The translations under genes were made by a program, and so were the position numbers. Shown here piece by piece: positions 2,588 through 64,000 of a DNA stretch of 64,000 nt. The DNA is from Deltaproteobacteria bacterium (GTDB taxonomy: Bacteria > Desulfobacterota_D > UBA1144 > Nemesobacterales > JAJCZQ01), in NCBI GenBank assembly GCA_029262335.1, contig JAJCZQ010000039.1:2138-66137 (forward strand), given 5' to 3'. Position 1 is the first letter of the stretch, and the number at the start of each line of letters is the position of its first letter. Below the pieces are notes generated by a model. That model saw nothing but the letters and a program-made list of their open reading frames with translations, searched no databases and was not told the origin of the DNA.

Positions 2588-3199
2588 TTACAGAATGCTA
2601 TCCATTAATGATCTGATCTGTTTTTGTACATCATCTGCTTCATGAGAAGCGTTAATAATTTTGATTCTGTTCGTATTTAATGTAGCTTCGGAAATATACC
2701 CCTGTCTTATCAGTTCATGAAACTCCATGGGTTCTTCGTCCATCCTGTTTGTGGTTTCGTCCCTCAAGTCAAGCCTCCTGAGGCCTTCCCTGACAGGAAG
2801 ATTAAGAAGAAATGTAACATCCGGAACAAGGTCTAGTGTGGAAGCTTCGGCAAGTTTCTTTACTGTATAAAGATCAAGCTGCCTGCCGTAGCCCTGGTAA
2901 ACTATTGTCGAGTCAAAATATCTGTCGCATATCACTACTTCCCCGTTTTCGAGCCTTGGGGTGATAAAATCTTTTACATGCTGGACCCTGTCGGCACAAA
3001 AAAGGTAGAGCTCGGTCAGGGGGTGGATATCAAGTTCTTTTTCTTCAAGGATTATGTGGCGTATAAGTTTCCCCATAGTCCCCCAGCCAGGCTCTCTTGT
3101 TAAAGAGACATTGTGACCCCTGGACTCAAGGTATTCCTTTAGCAGTTTACACTGCGTTGATTTGCCGCTGCCCTCAATACCTTCAAATGTTATAAACAA
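2588..3199 (-). CDS. tmk: Thymidylate kinase
   Basis: 203 aa with P-loop MFITFEGIEGSGKSTQ and a DRY-type motif (CDRYFDST). Confidence 0.9.
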   Translation of the reverse strand: MFITFEGIEGSGKSTQCKLLKEYLESRGHNVSLTREPGWGTMGKLIRHIILEEKELDIHPLTELYLFCADRVQHVKDFITPRLENGEVVICDRYFDSTIVYQGYGRQLDLYTVKKLAEASTLDLVPDVTFLLNLPVREGLRRLDLRDETTNRMDEEPMEFHELIRQGYISEATLNTNRIKIINASHEADDVQKQIRSLMDSIL

Positions 3200-5426: not shown

Positions 5427-6649
5427 TGGTAATTGAAGATATTAAAGATCTAATTCCGCTTATTGAGGAAAACCGTGCACTTGGTCTTGACGGTGCATTA
5501 TCAAAAATTAACGGCCAGACCGGAAATATTATTGAAAAATCCTTAACCGGCGGAGAGCTTACCATTAAAGAAGGGGAATACCTTTTTCATATCACTGATC
5601 CCCAGGAAATATCTTCCCTGGCACTTGCTGCCGACCACATCAGGAAAGAAGATGTAGGCGATACTGTAACTTATGTAGTAAACAGAAATATTAACTTTAC
5701 AAATATATGCAACGTCTACTGCGGTTTTTGTAATTTTATGGCCCCCGAAGGTGATGAAAGGGCATATTTTCTTACAATGGAAGAGATTGCAGAGCGCACC
5801 AAAGAAGCATGGGAAATAGGTGCTACAGAAGTTTGTATGCAGGGCGGAATGCACCCTGAAATTGACGGCAATTTTTATATAGACCTGATTAAAACTGTTA
5901 AAGAAGCAGTTCCCGAAATGCACACACATTCGTTCTCACCATATGAAGTCTGGTATGGAGCGGACACCCTTGGAATATCAGAAGAAGAATTTATTGAGAA
6001 ACTAAAAGACGTTGGGCACAACACATTTCCAGGTACAGCCGCTGAAGTGTTAGTTGAAGATGTAAGAAAAATTATTGCTCCGCGTAAAATTGCTACACAT
6101 ATCTGGATAAGAGTTGTAAAAAAAGCCCACCTTGCGGGTATCAGGACAACCTCTACAATTATGTACGGCCATCTTGATAAACCTCATCACTGGGCAATCC
6201 ACCTTGGGATATTAAGAGATATTCAGAAAGAGACAGGCGGTTTTACCGAGTTTGTCCCATTAAGGTTTATCCCGTGGAACACAAGGCTGTTTACTCATTC
6301 AAAAGGTAAAGTGCAAAAAGGGCCAACAGATATTGACCAGCTTAAGATGTACGCAGTATCAAGGATGATGCTGAGAGGCTGGATAAATAACATACAGGTA
6401 TCATGGGTAAAACAGGGGCCGGAATTTGCCCAGTTTTCACTTACTGCCGGGGCTAATGATTTTGGCGGAACACTTATGGAAGAGCAGATCTCAAGATTTG
6501 CAGGCGCAAGTTACGGGCAGTATTTCCCGCCTGAAGAGTTCAGAAGGCTTACACGTGAAATTGGTAGGATACCTGCTGAAAGAAGCACAACTTACAAGAT
6601 CCTCAGAGAGTTTGACGACAACGACGACGAGATCTCAAAAGCTTCCTGA
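5426..6649 (+). CDS. cofH: FO synthase subunit CofH, radical SAM
   Basis: 407 aa with VVNRNINFTNICNVYCGFCNF, which places it in the CofH/MqnC/MqnE clade. I call it CofH because it is translationally coupled to the CofG-type gene. Confidence 0.65.
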   Translation: MVIEDIKDLIPLIEENRALGLDGALSKINGQTGNIIEKSLTGGELTIKEGEYLFHITDPQEISSLALAADHIRKEDVGDTVTYVVNRNINFTNICNVYCGFCNFMAPEGDERAYFLTMEEIAERTKEAWEIGATEVCMQGGMHPEIDGNFYIDLIKTVKEAVPEMHTHSFSPYEVWYGADTLGISEEEFIEKLKDVGHNTFPGTAAEVLVEDVRKIIAPRKIATHIWIRVVKKAHLAGIRTTSTIMYGHLDKPHHWAIHLGILRDIQKETGGFTEFVPLRFIPWNTRLFTHSKGKVQKGPTDIDQLKMYAVSRMMLRGWINNIQVSWVKQGPEFAQFSLTAGANDFGGTLMEEQISRFAGASYGQYFPPEEFRRLTREIGRIPAERSTTYKILREFDDNDDEISKAS

Positions 6650-6687: not shown

Positions 6688-8067
6688 ATGGCTTCTAAAA
6701 AATACAGGAATTCTTTGTTTATTTTCCGAAGGGATTTAAGGCTTGAAGACAATACGGCTTTGATTGAGGCCTGCAAACTGTCTGACAAAGTAATCCTATC
6801 ATTTTTTTTCTACAATGACCTTCTTGATCCCGGTTCTGATAAATTCCGTCCAAACCTCATTCAGTTTATGTATGAAAGCCTTATGGATCTTTCCGGTCAG
6901 TTGGAGAAAAACGGATCCAGGCTAAATGTCTTTTATGGAAAGTCCTTATTAAAAGAGTTTGAGGAAATAGTTAAAGAAAATGAGATAGATGCTGTATTTG
7001 TAAATGAGGACTATACACCTTACGGTAAAAGAAGAGACGCAGCGCTTAAAAATATCTGCCTTGAAAATAATATTGATTTTCATTCATGTTTTGATTACCT
7101 GCTTACAAGGCCGGGTGATGTATTAACCAAAGAAGATAAACCCTACAAAGTATTTACTCCTTTTTTTAAAGCTGCTTCTTTATTCAATATTTATAAACCT
7201 GCTAAAAACAACTATAAGAATTATAAATATTTAAAATCTTGCAATAAAGACCTGACCCCGTTAACCAGGTTGTTTGTGAATAATGAGTTTATAGCTCAAA
7301 AAGGGGGCAGGAAAGAAGCACATAAACGATTTAACGTTATAAAAAAACTCAATGATTATAAAGATATAAGAAACTTTCCTTATAAAGAAGGCACAACAGG
7401 CCTTTCTGCGCATATAAAGTTCGGGACAGTTTCGATAAGAGAGGTTTACTGGTCTGTACGAAAACAGCTTGGTAATGATAGTCAGCTAATAACTGAGCTG
7501 TTCTGGAGAGATTTTTATGCACATTTAGCTTATTTCTTTCCATATGTATTTGGGCATTCATTTAACCCAAAGTACGAGAAGATTGAATGGAGTCATAATA
7601 GACAAGAATATGATGCATGGTGCTCTGGAAACACGGGGTTCCCAATTGTGGATGCGGGTATGAGGCAGTTAAATACAACCGGGTGGATGCACAACAGGGT
7701 CAGGATGATAGTAGCTTCTTTCCTCACCAAAGACCTTCATATTGACTGGAGATGGGGAGAGCAGTATTTTGCATCAAAACTTGTTGATTATGATCCATGT
7801 TCGAATAACGGCGGATGGCAGTGGGCAGCTTCAACAGGGGCCGATGCTCAGCCATATTTCAGGATATTTAACCCCTGGAGACAGCAGGAGAGGTTTGATA
7901 AAGATGCGGAATATATAAAAAAATGGGTGCCGGAACTTAGCGGGTTATCTGCCTTAGAAATACATAACCCGGAAAAAGGTAGTTTATTTACATCAAATTA
8001 TCCTCTTCCGATAATTAATCATAAAATTGAAGCAGCAAAAGCAAAAGAGATATATAAAAAAATTTAA
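6688..8067 (+). CDS. phr: Deoxyribodipyrimidine photolyase (class I CPD photolyase/cryptochrome family)
   Basis: 459 aa with motifs FIFRRDLRLEDNTAL, TGLSAHIKFG, WRDFY, TGFPIVDAGMRQL, GWMHNRVRMIVASFL and NNGGWQW. Confidence 0.85.
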   Translation: MASKKYRNSLFIFRRDLRLEDNTALIEACKLSDKVILSFFFYNDLLDPGSDKFRPNLIQFMYESLMDLSGQLEKNGSRLNVFYGKSLLKEFEEIVKENEIDAVFVNEDYTPYGKRRDAALKNICLENNIDFHSCFDYLLTRPGDVLTKEDKPYKVFTPFFKAASLFNIYKPAKNNYKNYKYLKSCNKDLTPLTRLFVNNEFIAQKGGRKEAHKRFNVIKKLNDYKDIRNFPYKEGTTGLSAHIKFGTVSIREVYWSVRKQLGNDSQLITELFWRDFYAHLAYFFPYVFGHSFNPKYEKIEWSHNRQEYDAWCSGNTGFPIVDAGMRQLNTTGWMHNRVRMIVASFLTKDLHIDWRWGEQYFASKLVDYDPCSNNGGWQWAASTGADAQPYFRIFNPWRQQERFDKDAEYIKKWVPELSGLSALEIHNPEKGSLFTSNYPLPIINHKIEAAKAKEIYKKI

Positions 8068-52257: not shown

Positions 52258-52632
52258 ATGGAAGAGTTTTCAGTCAAAAAAGAATCAGGAAAATTTAAGC
52301 TTAACAGAAGAACTACAAAGAGAATAAAGTTTCTGAAAAAAGTGAAATTTGGGATAGGTGAAGCTGTATTCCCAGGTAGTTCCTACAATATCTCGCAAAA
52401 AGGGATTCTGATACATTCATTTAAGGCATTCTTACCCAATACAACACTAAGTATTAAAATTTACAATGATTCAGAAGTAATTGATGTAAATGCTGAAGTA
52501 AAATGGGTCACCAAAACAATTGACCATACCGGCTCTTTTATGGGACTTTATTTTACAGGGAAAAACTTTGAACTCAGCAAACTTTATCATAAAGAGCTCA
52601 AAATCTCCCAGATTCAAAATTTGAGCCATTAG
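52258..52632 (+). CDS. Single-domain PilZ protein (c-di-GMP receptor)
   Basis: 124 aa with RRTTKR (RxxxR) and YNISQKG (D/NxSxxG). Confidence 0.7.
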   Translation: MEEFSVKKESGKFKLNRRTTKRIKFLKKVKFGIGEAVFPGSSYNISQKGILIHSFKAFLPNTTLSIKIYNDSEVIDVNAEVKWVTKTIDHTGSFMGLYFTGKNFELSKLYHKELKISQIQNLSH

Positions 52633-60979: not shown

Positions 60980-61813
60980 TTGAGCAAACTTAAGATGCGA
61001 TTAGGCCACAGTCCTGACCCGGATGATGCCTTTATGTTTTATGCAATTGCAAAGGAAAAAATTACATCAGAACTCGTTGATTTTGAACATGTTGTTGAAG
61101 ACATTCAGTCACTTAACAAAAGGGCATTAAACAAAGAGCTTGAGACAACAGCCATATCAGCTCATGGCTACCTCAAGGTGCAGGACGATTACAGGATTAT
61201 GACGTGCGGCGCCAGTATGGGTGACGGATACGGTCCAATTGTTGTAGCCAATGAAAATATAGATAGTCTGAAGGGGAAAAAGATTGCTGTTCCCGGCAAG
61301 CTGACTACTGCTTACCTGCTTTTAATGCTGTATGTTGATGATTTTATACCGGTAGAAGCTGCTTTTGACGACATTATTGGCGAGGTTAAAAGCGGAAATG
61401 TAGATGCCGGCCTGTTGATTCATGAAGGCCAGCTTACCTACAAAGAGCACGATCTTGTTTTGCTTCACGACCTCGGTGTTCTATGGGCTGAGGAGACTTC
61501 ACTTCCGCTACCGCTTGGATTAAATGTTATAAGAAGAGACATAAGTGAAGATCTGCAAAATGAGATACTAAGAGTCCACCAGGAAAGCATTGAATACTCC
61601 CTCGCAAATAAGGAAGAAGCACTGGAATATGCACTTGATTTCGGAAGGGGTATTGATACCGAAGTAAATGAAAAATTTGTATTAATGTATGTAAACGACC
61701 TTACTGTAGGCCTGGGTGAAAACGGAGTTGCAGCACTTAAATATCTGTTTGACAGGTCGTATGAAAAAGGCCTGATTGATAATGAGCCAAGACTTGATAT
61801 TCTTGGCGGTTAA
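60980..61813 (+). CDS. mqnD: 1,4-dihydroxy-6-naphthoate synthase (futalosine pathway)
   Basis: 277 aa with LRLGHSPDPDDAFMFYAI ... LLIHEGQLTY. TTG start behind AAGGAG. Confidence 0.75.
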   Translation: MSKLKMRLGHSPDPDDAFMFYAIAKEKITSELVDFEHVVEDIQSLNKRALNKELETTAISAHGYLKVQDDYRIMTCGASMGDGYGPIVVANENIDSLKGKKIAVPGKLTTAYLLLMLYVDDFIPVEAAFDDIIGEVKSGNVDAGLLIHEGQLTYKEHDLVLLHDLGVLWAEETSLPLPLGLNVIRRDISEDLQNEILRVHQESIEYSLANKEEALEYALDFGRGIDTEVNEKFVLMYVNDLTVGLGENGVAALKYLFDRSYEKGLIDNEPRLDILGG

Positions 61814-61833
61814 AAAATAAAATTAAATAACTC

Positions 61834-61862
61834 TTGCAATTTACACTCTGAAGTTATAGAAT
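61834..61862 (+). promoter_or_regulatory. Sigma-70-type promoter driving the riboswitch RNA
   Basis: TTGCAA (61834-61839), a 17-nt spacer, then TAGAAT (61857-61862). This predicts a start near 61869, a few nt before the aptamer. Confidence 0.5.
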
Positions 61863-61871
61863 TAGTTTAGA

Positions 61872-61962
61872 GCTTAACCGTAAGGGCAAACCATTTGAAA
61901 GGATGGGACGCAAAGCCAACGACCTAACCCCTTCGGGGTATGGTGGCCGGGTTGCCGATTTA
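61872..61962 (+). promoter_or_regulatory. c-di-GMP-I (GEMM-I) riboswitch aptamer
   Basis: GGGCAAACCAUUUGAAAGGAUGGGACGCAAAGCCAACGACCUAACCCCUUCGGGGUAUGGUGGCCGGGUUGCCGAU aligns almost base for base with the V. cholerae Vc2 aptamer. Shared elements are the GAAA tetraloop hairpin, ACGCAAAGCC, the CCUAA/UAUGG tetraloop receptor and GGGUUnCCGAU. Confidence 0.9.
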
Positions 61963-62058
61963 TTGAAGGTTTACTCTCCGTACCCTCCCTTGACCCGGGG
62001 CTGGCTTTCTCATCCTTAGTTTGCCTGTTGAATTAATAGATTTATTTGACTCAGGATG

Positions 62059-62099
62059 GGGAATGAATATTTCAAATGATTTATTCATTCCTTTTTTTT
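62059..62099 (+). terminator. Hairpin plus T8, plus-strand sense, about 100 nt after the aptamer
   Basis: ggaatgaata (62060-62069), a 12-nt loop, tattcattcc (82-91), then TTTTTTTT (92-99). The stem is AT-rich. The right arm overlaps the stop codon (62081-62083) of the convergent gene. Confidence 0.5.
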
Positions 62100-63118
62100 A
62101 TCATTTCCAGAAAATCCCTTAAAAATTCAATCAATATCAAAAACCTTTCAGGATCTTTATCAGGCAGTCTGTATCTTTTATTTATTTCAATTTGCATTGA
62201 GGGGATTCCAAGTTGGGTTGCAGCATATTTAGTTACTGTCTGCTGTTTGGATGCCGGAAACTTATCAAGACTTCCGCAGCTGATTCCGTATTTCTCAGCG
62301 GTATTATAAAAATCATCAAGGATATTTGTTTGCCCGAGTAAGAATTCCTTATCTCTTCCAATGCCGGGGTATATATCAAACTCCCTTTCCTCACCTGTGC
62401 CGTGAATGTCCAGCAAAAAATTGTGAGGTGTATCTTTACACATTATTCCGAGCCTTGTTTTATAATCACAGTTGTCATAGTAGTTGGGGTCAGAAATTGA
62501 TACTGAATTTGTATATACGGCAGTTGAACAGGTAAGGGAATGCATCAACGCGGAAAGAGCGGCCGTATAACGTTCAAATATTTTATACTTATTCAGTCTT
62601 ATATGGTTTGTTGCATGAGGTGCTGATAAAATAATGCCGCTATCACCCCTGAGTAATAATGTTTTTTCTTCGGAAAGGTGGCGATAGTAAAATTTATGTG
62701 ATTTCTCAAAATTTGTTATAAACGATAACGGGTTTTCCTTTATTTTCCTGCTGAAAGTGAGCCAGCTCCCGGAGGTTATTATCAGGTTCTGATTAAAAAT
62801 TTCCGGCTCTTTCAGAACATAAATAAAACTTTCAGTCCCGTTAATTGTAATACTAATTCTTTTAAAAATGCCATTTGAAGTATCTTCATAACTGTCGAGT
62901 GTTTTAAGCAGTGTGATTTTGTCCACGGGCAGTCTGTAAAGTTCGCCCCATATTACTGATGTTCCGTTTATTTCAGTGCTGGCAGCAGGAAAACCATACC
63001 CAGTGTCAAATAGTGTTCCCGGGATAGAAGTGTATTCAGTGAGGATGCAGTTTTTTAGCAGATAATTAGCAAACTCGCCTTTAAGTAAGGTGCCGTATAC
63101 AAACAGATACTCAGCCAT
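62081..63118 (-). CDS. Fusion protein: N-terminal gamma-glutamylcyclotransferase (AIG2/GGCT-like) domain plus C-terminal N-formylglutamate-amidohydrolase-like domain
   Basis: 345 aa. The N-terminus YLFVYGTLLKGE...GFPA...IWGELY is GGCT-like. The C-terminus ILSAPHATNH ... LLDIHGTG ... QIEINK resembles FGase / poly-gamma-glutamate-hydrolase-type zinc hydrolases. The start overlaps the upstream stop (ATGGCTGA). Confidence 0.55.
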   Translation of the reverse strand: MAEYLFVYGTLLKGEFANYLLKNCILTEYTSIPGTLFDTGYGFPAASTEINGTSVIWGELYRLPVDKITLLKTLDSYEDTSNGIFKRISITINGTESFIYVLKEPEIFNQNLIITSGSWLTFSRKIKENPLSFITNFEKSHKFYYRHLSEEKTLLLRGDSGIILSAPHATNHIRLNKYKIFERYTAALSALMHSLTCSTAVYTNSVSISDPNYYDNCDYKTRLGIMCKDTPHNFLLDIHGTGEEREFDIYPGIGRDKEFLLGQTNILDDFYNTAEKYGISCGSLDKFPASKQQTVTKYAATQLGIPSMQIEINKRYRLPDKDPERFLILIEFLRDFLEMIKKRNE

Positions 63119-64000
63119 TTAAATTTTTGTATTTATCATTTCTGGACCAGATTATATTTCCCCCGACCATGTTCATTTGAAGCTGGTCTTTTGTTGATAA
63201 CAGGACCTGAAGGTAAGGGTCGGCAGGTTTGGTTTTATATGAAAGAAAAATAAGGTCTGCTGCTTTCCCGGCTTCTATGCTGCCGGTCTCCTTATCGATA
63301 AACAAAGACCTTGCTCCACCAAGCGTGGCGCAGTAAACAGTCTGAAAAGAAGCTTCCTTTCCCATAAATCCGGAAAGTAAAAGATGAAGGGCCTTCATTT
63401 CTTCAAAATAATCCAGGTTGTAATTGCTGGATAACCCGTCTGTCCCCAGGCCGAGTCTTTCGAGTTTTACAAGATTCTTTAAAGGCGGGACACCTACTTT
63501 CAGAAAAAGGTTACTTCTCGGGCAAAGTATGATTCCAACAGGTTTTTTTCTTATCCTGTTTATATCTGATTTACTCAGCTGTACTCCGTGGATAATAGTT
63601 GATCTTGTGTTCAGGTCCTTGTTAAAGTTTGAAAAATATTCCACCGGGCTTTTTGCAGCAGGTCTTTTGAAATTGCTTTTTTCTATCAGGGGAAAGATTT
63701 TATTTTCAAAATTATTTTTCTTTTGCTTAATAAAGTCAGTTTCTTCAGGGCTTTCACCCAAGTGAATGCCTGTTGGGATGTCTTTTTTACGTGAATGTTT
63801 GTAAATCTCTTTTAAGAGCTTTGGCGAACAGGAATAAGGGGCATGGGGAAAGGGCCTTTTTTCGATTAATCCATCTTTGCCAAAGGGTTTTGTTTCTATA
63901 AGGCCGGTATCCTTATCAAACAGCTCCTCAAATATTATTGCTCTTAACCCTGACTTTTTAAGAAGAGGTATATCAGCTCCGCCAAATGAGGATATCTCTC
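63111..64000 (-). CDS. Metal-dependent amidohydrolase (deaminase/chlorohydrolase-type), C-terminal part; N-terminus beyond the right window edge
   Basis: The frame is open to base 64000. My translation upstream of the track ORF gives ...RPFPHAPYSCSPKLLKEIYKHSRKKDIPTGIHLGESPEE, then ILCPRSN, LGTDGLSSN and IEAGKAADLI. The M in the track is a TTG inside the gene. Confidence 0.75.
   Translation of the reverse strand, partial: EISSFGGADIPLLKKSGLRAIIFEELFDKDTGLIETKPFGKDGLIEKRPFPHAPYSCSPKLLKEIYKHSRKKDIPTGIHLGESPEETDFIKQKKNNFENKIFPLIEKSNFKRPAAKSPVEYFSNFNKDLNTRSTIIHGVQLSKSDINRIRKKPVGIILCPRSNLFLKVGVPPLKNLVKLERLGLGTDGLSSNYNLDYFEEMKALHLLLSGFMGKEASFQTVYCATLGGARSLFIDKETGSIEAGKAADLIFLSYKTKPADPYLQVLLSTKDQLQMNMVGGNIIWSRNDKYKNLNG

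Follow-up and report, generated by a model that had tools for sequence, protein, structure and literature searches.

At the locus studied here, in an uncultured marine bacterium (Candidatus Dadabacteria), we found a small RNA gene that carries a c-di-GMP sensor and has no protein-coding gene behind it. The predicted RNA unit is about 230 nt long (approximately 61869-62099 on the plus strand of the window, by which we mean the whole 64-kb stretch of DNA that was analysed) and consists of a promoter-like site, an aptamer, a 100-nt 3' domain, and a terminator hairpin followed by U8. The genes and elements of the locus are as follows.

60980-61813, plus strand: mqnD-like gene (VitK2_biosynth), which ends the his-HD-mqnA-mqnD cluster upstream on the same strand
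61834-61862, plus strand: promoter-like site, TTGCAA (-35), 17-nt spacer, and TAGAAT (-10), with 9/12 matches in a consensus scan
61875-61959, plus strand: c-di-GMP-I (GEMM-I) aptamer, RF01051
61884-61891, plus strand: core segment GGGCAAAC, read in the sequence; also E1a, an alternative partner of E2
61891-61906, plus strand: P2 hairpin with a GAAA tetraloop, read in the sequence
61899-61908, plus strand: E1b, AAGGAUGGGA, the other alternative partner of E2 (E1a and E1b from the minimum free energy fold of the window sequence and the RNAalifold consensus of 14 sequences)
61908-61917, plus strand: core ACGCAAAGCC, read in the sequence
61923-61927 and 61939-61943, plus strand: P3 receptor halves CCUAA and UAUGG, read in the sequence
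61966-61989, plus strand: conserved C/U-rich stretch AAGGUUUACUCUCCGUACCCUCCC, from alignments of 14 sequences
61991-61998, plus strand: anti-P3 strand UGACCCGG
62006-62027, plus strand: switch strand E2, UUUCUCAUCCUUAGUUUGCCUG
62028-62049, plus strand: A/U-rich linker, which differs among relatives in both sequence and length in the alignments
62050-62063, plus strand: E3, CUCAGGAUGGGGAA, partner of E2
62060-62069 with 62082-62091, and U8 at 62092-62099, plus strand: intrinsic terminator with a 10-bp stem and a 12-nt loop, from the sequence and folds
62081-63118, minus strand: convergent gene of 345 aa, a GGACT domain (PF06094) fused to a PghP-like hydrolase domain, from the ORF list, Pfam, and a predicted structure

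An amidohydrolase operon ends with the convergent gene, whose synteny is kept in the related loci. The original prediction, made from the sequence alone, had described it as GGCT/FGase-like. The GGCT-type domain was borne out, as GGACT is gamma-glutamyl cyclotransferase-like, but the FGase assignment was dropped: the C-terminal domain had no match in Pfam or among PDB sequences, and the fold search led to PghP and YndL instead. The structure predicted for the protein (pLDDT 92.7) matched PDB entries 3a9l and 5onj, which suggests that the C-terminal domain most resembles poly-gamma-glutamate hydrolases (PghP, YndL). A genome search with this single GGACT protein as the query returned only distant GGACT domains, and the exact protein was absent from the records. 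Elsewhere in the window, the PilZ gene that had been read at 52258 was recovered as PF07238 (E 6.5e-8).

Downstream of the RNA, no candidate for a regulated gene was found on its strand. Only minus-strand genes occupy positions 62081-64000, and in the related loci the nearest gene on the RNA's strand encodes a periplasmic-binding protein about 4 kb downstream. The ORF at 62076-62309 had been described as the only one on the plus strand, but two others exist (61903-62019 and 62021-62122), and none of them is conserved. Neither 62021-62122 nor 62076-62309 had a Pfam match. We also translated small ORFs from AUG 61903 and AUG 62063 in 16 sequences; these ranged from 3 aa to open-ended, with frameshifts, and were rejected as genes.

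The aptamer is the sole Rfam match within the window. It aligns to the full RF01051 model (positions 1-87 of 87) at 70 bits, twice the gathering score of 35 bits, with an E-value of 1.1e-11 as computed for the 64-kb window, and this strong match agrees with the earlier placement of a GEMM-I aptamer at 61872-61962. The fold that had been described, with a GAAA hairpin, a core, and a CCUAA/UAUGG receptor, can be read in the sequence in full: the GAAA loop lies at 61897-61900 on a 6-bp stem, and both docking arms, the GNRA tetraloop and the 11-nt receptor, are present. Relatives carry U/C changes in the stem of the GAAA hairpin that keep its pairing. Aligning GGGCAAAC, ACGCAAAG, and GCCGAU to the Rfam consensus gave G61885, A61912, and C61956 as the equivalents of the ligand contacts, which we take to be the Vc2 contact nucleotides G20, A47, and C92. 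Aptamers of the cGAMP-specific type have A20 (Vc2 numbering). By this alignment the contact nucleotides appear to be those of the c-di-GMP-specific type, as had been proposed, rather than the cGAMP type. Three relatives (L020, L103, and L106) have GCAUAA instead of GCCGAU.

The consensus match to the promoter is not above chance when taken alone, as 6 such sites were found in the scan against 7.4 expected. Its support comes from the related loci, in which both hexamers persist while the spacer changes, and in one of them (L030) TTGACT-17-TATAAT occupies the equivalent place. The TTGCAA-17-TAGAAT element that had been pointed out is thus strongly supported as a conserved sigma-70-type promoter, with a predicted transcription start near 61869 and an A/T-rich region upstream. 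At the other end of the unit, the terminator hairpin has a predicted energy of -13.2 kcal/mol. It was missed by the scan tool because its loop is 12 nt long, but it corresponds to the 10-bp hairpin and T8 that had been placed at 62059-62099. Its stem is invariant in 13/14 sequences, while its loop is variable. The overlap with the convergent gene that had been reported was seen as well: the stop codon (62081-83) lies inside the 3' arm, and the final five codons (KKRNE) of the gene are the complement of the 3' arm and U tract, so that the last five codons and stop (62081-62099) overlap the RNA terminator over 19 nt of coding sequence.

This arrangement is not confined to one genome. We found the same geometry in 11 further distinct Candidatus Dadabacteria sequences with an RF01051 match at the same position (69-73 bits; 13 loci matched, re-fetched copies among them), and also in a relative (L016) with a decayed aptamer. 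The L030 sequence keeps the RNA unit at the same position next to a neighbouring protein that is only 45% identical. Identity along the RNA is 75-95% among relatives, compared with 39-56% at the third codon positions of mqnD, which indicates that the RNA is more constrained than synonymous sites. In more distant relatives the convergent stop codons are 9-23 nt apart and the RNA is absent; because the gene ends abut there, the RNA gene appears to have been gained within one clade and not to be a rearrangement scar. A comparison of orthologous loci had been suggested with the original prediction, and it came out in favour of the orphan arrangement: the geometry is kept, and in related genomes the aptamer never stands before an ordinary gene at this locus. 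The kept geometry, together with constraint stronger than that on synonymous sites, led us to reject a rearrangement scar or decaying remnant. A generic aptamer pattern scan of genomes gave, among the matches listed, mostly unrelated GEMM-I copies, with three useful ones (L176, L110, and L168); in L176, a relative, an RF01051-class aptamer belongs to an ordinary leader and precedes a nucleotide-sugar dehydrogenase gene by about 410 nt. Taken together, the promoter, the aptamer, the 3' domain, the terminator over the convergent stop, the lack of a conserved ORF, and purifying selection along the whole RNA are strongly supported. Since the RNA is almost unchanged in related genomes, the RNA itself is probably the regulator.

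Within the conserved 3' domain, E2 has two alternative sets of partners. Positions 62008-17 and 62021-26 of E2 can pair with E1, while 62006-19 can pair with E3 in a 14-bp helix that is paired in 88.8% of cells. The anti-P3 strand is complementary to the 3' strand of P3, CCGGGUUG (61947-54), with 96.4% of cells paired; in L030 it differs, and GCAAUCC pairs with GGGUUGC in another register. The pairs that would oppose the aptamer number 28, with 96.7% of cells paired, compared with 34-62% when the partners were slid. There is little covariation, given how similar the sequences are, with one compensatory pair in this anti-aptamer and two in E2:E3, the latter both only in L016. The anti-aptamer is the minimum free energy fold in the window and in four other sequences, as well as the RNAalifold consensus of the 14 sequences. 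Since E1 pairs with both the 5' arm of P2 and E2, and E2 with both E1 and E3, this double use accounts for the near-invariance of these segments. The original prediction had speculated that CAUCCUU (62011-17), with complementarity to 61899-61905 and 62053-58, could be a switching element. Both pairings are present and longer than described, and a conserved complementarity of three partners centres on CAUCCUU.

Within the C/U-rich stretch, UUACUCUC is invariant in the 14 sequences. A second segment, GGUUUACUCU, could pair with the 5' leader (61869-79) to form a candidate closing helix of the aptamer; 61869-79 and 61968-77 pair in 13-14 of the 14 sequences, and as they are invariant there is no covariation. 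No predicted partner was found for CCGUACCCUCCC. The whole stretch 61966-61989 is deleted in L016, which has lost the aptamer and has a weakened terminator but retains E2:E3 through its two compensatory changes. L030 has its own kind of 3' domain, which lacks a U-tract terminator, and the mechanism may therefore differ across the clade. A local helix of CUCCG (61976-80) with CGGGG (61996-62000) appeared in one single-sequence fold and was discarded, as it is lost in L015, L017, and L107. No second known RNA family was recognised in the 3' domain: a permissive Rfam search of 61780-62200 produced nothing but noise below threshold, located over the terminator.

The energetics of these folds, which are nearest-neighbour values that leave out tertiary contacts, ligand, and folding kinetics, suggest two conformers. 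The anti-aptamer is favoured only once E2 has been synthesized, and E3 then returns about 12 kcal/mol to the aptamer state. Both conformers are predicted to form the terminator, at a probability of no less than 0.875; when the aptamer was enforced, the values were 0.875-0.995 for the terminator base and 0.999 for the E2:E3 core. As the terminator is predicted in both states, these folds argue that termination is not the switched step. The last 4 nt of E3 (62060-63) are also the base of the 5' arm of the terminator, an overlap found in 14/14 sequences, and E2:E3 may affect the terminator kinetically. Before the 3' arm of the terminator is made, the predicted fold is the full 11-bp E2:E3 hairpin (-17.7 kcal/mol); at equilibrium, the terminator with a shortened E2:E3 is better than the full E2:E3 by 4.8 kcal/mol.

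We propose that the locus is a complete gene in itself, specific to a clade of Candidatus Dadabacteria, for a non-coding RNA about 230 nt long, and that this small RNA senses c-di-GMP, ends at its own terminator, and adopts two conformers; we give this reading a probability of roughly 40%. When c-di-GMP is absent, E2 (62006-27) and the anti-P3 strand (61991-98) would pair with 61884-91, 61899-908, and 61947-54 and so open up the aptamer, leaving E3 (62050-59) single-stranded. When c-di-GMP is bound, the aptamer would be locked and E2 would pair with E3 in a hairpin that stacks on the terminator. With the terminator present in both states, the main product would always be the short RNA, so the output would be carried by the RNA itself. 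What c-di-GMP would change is the exposure of conserved segments, namely E3, the C/U-rich 61978-89, and the A/U-rich linker, through which the RNA would pair with another molecule or bind it. From the sequence, a single such partner can be named, the mRNA 3' end of the convergent operon, which is perfectly complementary; a target in trans or a protein is equally possible. The C/U-rich stretch paired with translation start regions in the window no better than shuffled seeds did, and the start region of the PilZ gene, which gave the best duplex in the window at -18.9 kcal/mol, was not significant against the average of -19.4 for shuffled seeds. A more specific version of the proposal is tentative: c-di-GMP may flip the three-partner switch of aptamer, E2, and E3 in this self-terminated RNA and thereby gate its pairing with the hydrolase-operon mRNA, through cis-antisense or kinetic read-through, or with unlinked mRNAs through the C/U-rich stretch, which would make it a so far undemonstrated type of c-di-GMP-gated riboregulator.

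The main rival is a transcriptional ON riboswitch that produces antisense RNA, which we consider somewhat doubtful. In such a switch, E2 would be held by the aptamer sequence without ligand and termination would be efficient. A ligand-locked aptamer would free E2, and E2:E3 would then hold GGAA (62060-63) and delay formation of the G-C base of the terminator, so that some polymerases enter the GGACT-fusion/amidohydrolase/DapF operon and lower its expression by antisense RNA or head-on interference. The 4-nt overlap of E3 with the terminator 5' arm in 14/14 sequences fits this, as does the prediction that E2:E3 forms before the 3' arm exists and, at -17.7 kcal/mol, is stronger than the terminator alone at -13.2 kcal/mol; without those four pairs the remaining stem is A/U-rich and lies 4 nt from the U tract. 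The L016 sequence would be a constitutive read-through version, and a target with a PghP-like domain would fit the repression of matrix-degrading enzymes that is a recurrent theme of c-di-GMP signalling. There are also precedents in the AspocR RNA of Listeria (cited in 10.1101/617340) and in RCd11/RCd12 of Clostridioides difficile (PMC11477304). Against this, the equilibrium favours the terminator with the shortened E2:E3, the terminator base stays probable with the aptamer enforced, and U8 after a 10-15 bp stem is a strong terminator in all clade members but L016. On the E2 side, moreover, the four competing pairs (a G-U among them) are weaker than GGAA:UUCC, and displacement of the strand should therefore be fast. 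Between a stand-alone RNA and the gated read-through antisense, the two outcomes that had been envisaged originally, equilibrium folding favours a stand-alone RNA that is always terminated.

Two other explanations appear unlikely. An abundant RNA could act as a sponge or store that buffers or releases c-di-GMP without any base-pairing target, as proposed for the merRNA of Bdellovibrio. The locus resembles merRNA in being a stand-alone, ORF-free aptamer RNA (PMC3627812), and the A/T-rich region upstream of the promoter would suit such a role, but a sponge would need neither a conserved 28-bp anti-aptamer that competes with the ligand nor a conserved 100-nt 3' domain, and there is just one aptamer in 230 nt. 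The RNA could instead be the 3' UTR tail and shared terminator of the his-HD-mqnA-mqnD operon, with a c-di-GMP-dependent fold that sets mRNA stability, much as the Vc2 riboswitch shields the RNA upstream of it against 3' decay. No terminator-like hairpin was found by sequence or scan between the end of the mqnD-like gene (61813) and the RNA promoter/aptamer, so transcripts of the same-strand operon probably run through the RNA to 62099, and a precedent exists in a 3'-located c-di-GMP riboswitch that stabilizes the upstream RNA (10.1101/617340). This explanation is nonetheless hard to reconcile with a conserved promoter directly upstream of the aptamer, the spacer of which is free to vary, or with an aptamer that is followed by 140 nt and a normal terminator rather than being 3'-terminal, and the RNA-free relatives do well with gene ends 9-23 nt apart. 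The least probable reading is that of a translational riboswitch acting on a tiny ORF, with E3 (AGGAUGGGG) serving as the ribosome-binding site for AUG 62063 and E2 as an anti-Shine-Dalgarno strand, set free by c-di-GMP, that blocks translation: this AUG, present in all sequences, has AGGA 6 nt upstream, and E2 does look like an anti-Shine-Dalgarno sequence, but the frame has 4 codons in L015, L018, and L021, 14 in L012, and is open-ended or in another frame elsewhere, its amino acids track the hairpin and U tract rather than a conserved protein, it has no Pfam match, and the usual Shine-Dalgarno sequence in this genome is AAGGAG or GGAGG.

To our knowledge, almost all known c-di-GMP riboswitches precede genes. 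Only a handful of non-coding RNAs that bear riboswitches are known. A stand-alone riboswitch RNA is a rare arrangement, although one that is already known. The original prediction of a c-di-GMP-I aptamer with its own promoter, no ORF, and a convergent overlap with the end of a hydrolase operon holds here, with the promoter conserved and no conserved ORF, and the locus provides a compact and well-delimited case of about 230 nt with a clear two-state model, for which in vitro work is feasible despite the uncultured host. Natural variants are available in the decayed aptamer of L016, the altered C92 position of L020 and L103, and the different 3' domain of L030. The locus is also an example of aptamer recruitment, in which a new gene arose where two convergent operons abut, and it marks the GGACT/PghP-like hydrolase operon as a possible target linked to c-di-GMP. 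If the proposed small RNA does gate pairing, Dadabacteria would have a way for c-di-GMP to exert post-transcriptional control without a protein.

Among known systems, the aptamer itself is like that of Vc2 and other c-di-GMP-I riboswitches of 5' leaders, with a full RF01051 match, a GNRA tetraloop and receptor, and the GGGCAAAC and ACGCAAAGCC cores. In contrast to these leaders, and to classical cis-acting riboswitches generally, there is no same-strand ORF downstream for a platform to gate; the next 2 kb at least belong to the convergent operon, the RNA has its own terminator, and its platform, instead of competing for the P1 strand, is a long-range anti-aptamer that lies 50-70 nt downstream. 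Nor does the aptamer form the 3' terminus of the transcript as in the Vc2 sRNA, as the 140 nt that follow it include the hairpin and U8. A further likeness is to the merRNA of Bdellovibrio bacteriovorus, a 445-nt RNA defined by its massive expression (PMC3627812). Both are independent non-coding RNAs, here by prediction of an own promoter and an own 3' end, with a c-di-GMP-I riboswitch, no conserved ORF downstream, and a distribution within one lineage; this likeness is drawn from the two descriptions, and the RNA described here has a conserved anti-aptamer switch and a convergent-gene overlap, neither of which has been described for merRNA. The orphan aptamer CD2517/CD2517.1 of C. difficile likewise has a c-di-GMP-I aptamer and lacks both an assigned gene downstream and a known function (PMC11477304), but in another organism and context, whereas the present locus has clade conservation and a predicted, defined unit from promoter to terminator.

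The convergent geometry has its counterparts in Listeria, where a B12 riboswitch controls the antisense RNA AspocR (discussed in 10.1101/617340), and in C. difficile, where c-di-GMP-I riboswitches precede the antitoxin RNAs RCd11 and RCd12 (PMC11477304). As in those systems, the aptamer faces a gene from its 3' side, in convergent orientation, with a terminator between them, where read-through would give antisense RNA, and here this geometry is kept in relatives. The ligand class differs from that of AspocR and the type of target from that of RCd11/RCd12; moreover, equilibrium folding gives no support here to a regulated read-through, and the terminated RNA already overlaps its putative target over 19 nt of coding sequence. 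Finally, the Bc1 riboswitch of Bacillus thuringiensis (PMC11218506) differs in standing before genes and having two terminators, compared with one terminator and no downstream gene at our locus. It shares with the RNA described here a long platform and a downstream terminator that is folded with or without c-di-GMP, and there the binding of the ligand alters the structure while termination is unchanged.

The gap between the two convergent operons holds a c-di-GMP-I aptamer, to which the Rfam model RF01051 aligns over its full, untruncated length at 61875-61959 (+), scoring 70 bits (gathering score 35, E 1.1e-11), and an Rfam scan gave this as the sole hit of the whole window. The original prediction had read such an aptamer directly from the DNA, and each feature that it listed is legible in its place, as set out here with the surrounding elements:

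ending at 61813, +, upstream: hisA, hisF, an HD/HD_assoc phosphohydrolase gene and two VitK2_biosynth genes (mqnA and mqnD-like)
61884-91, +: aptamer segment GGGCAAAC, from the sequence
61891-61906, +: GAAA tetraloop hairpin, from the sequence
61908-17, +: aptamer core ACGCAAAGCC, from the sequence
61923-27 and 61939-43, +: receptor halves CCUAA and UAUGG, from the sequence
62060-69 with 62082-91, +: terminator, a 10-bp stem with a 12-nt loop, then U8 at 62092-99; predicted -13.2 kcal/mol
62081-63118, -: GGACT-fusion gene of 345 aa, a convergent ORF
downstream of the RNA gene, -: Amidohydro_1 gene and the GGACT-domain gene, from a domain search

We take G61885, A61912 and C61956 to be the equivalents of G20, A47 and C92 in Vc2 numbering. 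The cGAMP type of GEMM-I aptamer has A20, and the G at this position points to the proposed specificity for c-di-GMP rather than cGAMP. The predicted promoter, TTGCAA-17-TAGAAT, is present at 61834-61862 in a consensus scan; such bare matches are no more frequent than chance predicts (6 sites in 3 kb, 7.4 expected), and an alignment of relatives has both hexamers kept and the spacer variable. The suggested terminator-like hairpin with its U8 was likewise found, and 13 of the 14 aligned sequences have the same stem, with a loop that varies. A terminator scan tool missed this hairpin because of the loop length; the tool's own candidate at 61941-57 was rejected, being a portion of the aptamer. 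The hairpin overlaps the end of the convergent gene, as had been claimed: the stop codon (TAA, 62081-83) falls within the terminator 3' arm, and the last codons of the ORF (KKRNE) are the complement of this arm and the U tract. No intrinsic terminator is visible after mqnD (61813-61833, +) or after the GGACT gene (62081-61800, -), and transcription of each operon probably continues into the RNA gene, in sense from the mqnD side and in antisense from the GGACT side. Neither the ORF starting at AUG 61903 in the aptamer nor that at AUG 62063 in the terminator is conserved among relatives, in keeping with the claim that the RNA has no ORF.

For comparison, we used loci encoding relatives of the GGACT protein, from 94% down to 53% identity. 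All of them keep the amidohydrolase-GGACT operon converging on mqnD-mqnA-HD-hisF-hisA across a gap of 274-304 nt from one stop-codon end to the other, and RF01051 matches of 69-73 bits lie in this gap on the mqnD strand in L009-12, L014, L015, L017, L018/L023, L019, L020 and L021, which count as 10 distinct sequences since several are one sequence fetched twice. The same gap in L030, where the GGACT protein is just 45% identical, also has a match and brings the count to 11, while a profile search located the whole RNA in L103-L107 as well. A DNA pattern of the 3' domain recovered only this locus from the genomes and metagenomes searched. Identity to the window copy is 75-95% for the RNA in genomes whose mqnD third codon positions are just 39-56% identical (the exception is L016, with an RNA 61% identical), and an A/U-rich linker at 62028-49 varies in length and sequence. 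These alignments show a conserved, ORF-less putative transcription unit with a canonical c-di-GMP-I aptamer, and purifying selection along the RNA's full length. In more distant, Dadabacteria-like genomes (L028, L032, L042, L045 and L049) the aptamer is absent and the GGACT and mqnD genes end 9-23 nt apart, so the RNA gene looks like a gain within a single clade; other gap sizes were 329 nt (L046), 820 nt (L043) and 76 nt (L044). A rearrangement scar, which the original prediction had raised against itself, was rejected: relatives keep the orphan geometry, and in the distant genomes the converging genes abut without an aptamer, so the RNA gene is not the remnant of a rearranged leader.

When 61866-62105 is folded, the energy minimum is not the aptamer but a long-range structure (-72.8 kcal/mol, z -2.4) of four anti-aptamer helices, all on the + strand:

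62021-26 with GGGCAA (61884-89)
62008-17 with AAGGAUGGGA (61899-908)
62001-04 with 61916-19
UGACCCGG (61991-98) with the P3 strand CCGGGUUG (61947-54)

This structure is also the RNAalifold consensus of 14 sequences and the lowest-energy fold of L015, L017, L103 and L107, each folded singly; over its 28 pairs, 96.7% of cells are paired, and sliding the partners lowers this to 34-62%. Because it is an inverted repeat, the RNA profile matches its own reverse strand. The switch strand, E2, has an alternative partner: 62006-19 pairs with E3 (62050-63) over 14 bp with one U-C mismatch (88.8% of cells paired), and the mismatch becomes U-A or U-G in L107, L017 and L016. Along the transcript, predicted energies favour the anti-aptamer by up to 17.5 kcal/mol after E2 synthesis, E3 synthesis gives about 12 kcal/mol back to the aptamer state, and the remaining gap, about 6 kcal/mol above the constrained aptamer's baseline penalty, is by this calculation within reach of a nanomolar ligand, binding of c-di-GMP being of nanomolar affinity (PMC3627812). 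The sequences differ so little that covariation is weak throughout, with two compensatory changes in E2:E3 (C-G to U-A and A-U to U-A, L016 having both), and the case for a switch rests on conserved complementarity and energy, not compensatory change. The aptamer segments E1 (61884-91 and 61899-908) pair with the other arm of their own hairpin and with E2, E2 pairs with E1 and E3, and the terminator 3' arm doubles as coding sequence for the protein end; together, these demands explain most of the invariance of the segments. Pairing of GGUUUACUCU (61968-77) with the 5' leader may close the aptamer, in a candidate helix that never varies among the sequences, and no partner was predicted for CCGUACCCUCCC (61978-89).

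Several natural variants depart from this pattern. The best independent support for the alternative pairing comes from L030 (4006-4299, -), which keeps the aptamer and a promoter (TTGACT-17-TATAAT) and has a different 3' domain with its own anti-P3 strand, GCAAUCC pairing with GGGUUGC, in other sequence and register. This domain has a short A/U-rich hairpin, a C-rich strand with the 5' leader or GAUGGGUGGGG as alternative partners, and no U-tract terminator. The L030 GGACT gene is 14 codons longer and thus overlaps more of the RNA, and a perfect 12-bp inverted repeat (AUGGAUUUCUGA with UCAGAAAUCCAU) lies inside its extended coding end; the overall switching logic may differ from that of the window clade. 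In L016 the homologue (7018-7260, -) has a degenerate aptamer (GGGCAAAC to UGAGCAAC, ACGCAAAGC to ACAUGAAGC) with no RF01051 match in the Rfam scan, lacks the CCCUCCC stretch, and has a terminator that has lost its two basal G-C pairs and its unbroken U tract. It nonetheless retains E2:E3 through its two compensatory changes, and may be a ligand-independent derivative. Three copies, L020 (1069-1317, -), L103 (3510-3763, -) and L106 (1711-1964, -), have GCAUAA in place of GCCGAU just after P3, which alters the C92 equivalent and may alter ligand affinity or specificity; the remaining RNA is intact, and L020, the one scored, still reaches 70.3 bits for RF01051.

Our preferred reading, to which we give a probability of roughly 0.4, is a self-terminated riboregulator in which ligand state alters the segments exposed: as a two-state small RNA, it would have E2 shifted by c-di-GMP from the aptamer onto E3. 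Its one partner known from sequence would be the convergent operon mRNA, whose 3' end covers 19 nt or more of the RNA; with no minus-strand terminator visible, the mRNA may read on and cover all of it. Kinetically gated read-through, producing antisense RNA against the hydrolase operon, is unlikely but is the alternative that survives best. E3 has GGAA (62060-63) in common with the terminator base, and until the terminator 3' arm exists the predicted fold is the full E2:E3 hairpin, which, at -17.7 kcal/mol, is stabler than the terminator alone (-13.2). However, both helices can coexist: with the aptamer enforced, the optimum combines a shortened E2:E3 with the full terminator (-61.3 kcal/mol), full E2:E3 is worse by 4.8 (-56.5), and the terminator basal pairs form with ensemble probabilities of 0.875 and 0.995. 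These values suggest that the RNA would terminate in both conformers at equilibrium, kinetic effects lying outside such predictions, and that ligand would set only whether E2 sits on the aptamer, leaving E3 exposed, or on E3. A c-di-GMP sponge is improbable, and equally so is the idea that the RNA serves the mqn operon as its c-di-GMP-responsive tail and terminator, for all the probable sense transcription from mqnD, while a leader of a tiny ORF is very improbable, neither start codon's ORF being kept.

In the product of the neighbouring convergent gene, the GGACT/AIG2-like domain occupies the N-terminal residues 5-120, and the remaining ~220 C-terminal residues have no Pfam match and no PDB sequence match. 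The earlier label "FGase-like" did not hold up, having no sequence match; the predicted structure (pLDDT 92.7) resembles the zinc poly-gamma-glutamate hydrolases PghP (3a9l) and YndL (5onj) in a fold search (TM-scores to target 0.62-0.63), and the domain should be called PghP-like. The family has invariant His, Asp and Glu residues and appears uncharacterised. In related loci DapF and amidohydrolase genes share its operon, and together with the predicted fold this suggests breakdown of gamma-glutamyl peptides, which would be, purely as conjecture, a plausible c-di-GMP-linked function. A PilZ gene does lie at 52258, as first reported. Relatives of the GGACT protein number >200, and those with names come from Thermodesulfobacteriota and Dadabacteria MAGs (NCBI taxonomy places Dadabacteria as a class within Thermodesulfobacteriota); among named genomes, "Candidatus Dadabacteria bacterium CSMAG_3085" is nearest (mqnD identity 90%). 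The locus is well delimited and testable in vitro, with informative natural variants.

Among the papers searched, none linked Dadabacteria with the c-di-GMP-I riboswitch. L176, a relative without this RNA, has a conventional c-di-GMP-I riboswitch ~410 nt upstream of a nucleotide-sugar dehydrogenase gene. Among the matches listed, several c-di-GMP-I riboswitches lie close together in related Thermodesulfobacteriota genomes: two within 3.3 kb in L176 (Desulfobacterota AH_259_B03_O07; 3031-3119, the dehydrogenase one, and 6241-6331, +) and two ~190 nt apart, possibly tandem, in L110 (MAG Mix_mud21.2022.07.37; 94-198 and 386-472, -). The aptamer of the window is itself an ordinary RF01051 member, but the arrangement is unlike a classical riboswitch, yet precedented. 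In C. difficile, c-di-GMP-I riboswitches precede the antisense RNAs RCd11 and RCd12, with one further orphan copy (PMC11477304). Other precedents are AspocR and Rli55 under B12-riboswitch control, a SAM riboswitch acting in trans and Vc2-terminated sRNAs stabilised by c-di-GMP (10.1101/617340, the first two as reviewed there), as well as a second terminator in Bc1 that is folded irrespective of ligand (PMC11218506). The merRNA of Bdellovibrio, for which a store function has been proposed (PMC3627812), is, like the window RNA, a stand-alone c-di-GMP riboswitch RNA.
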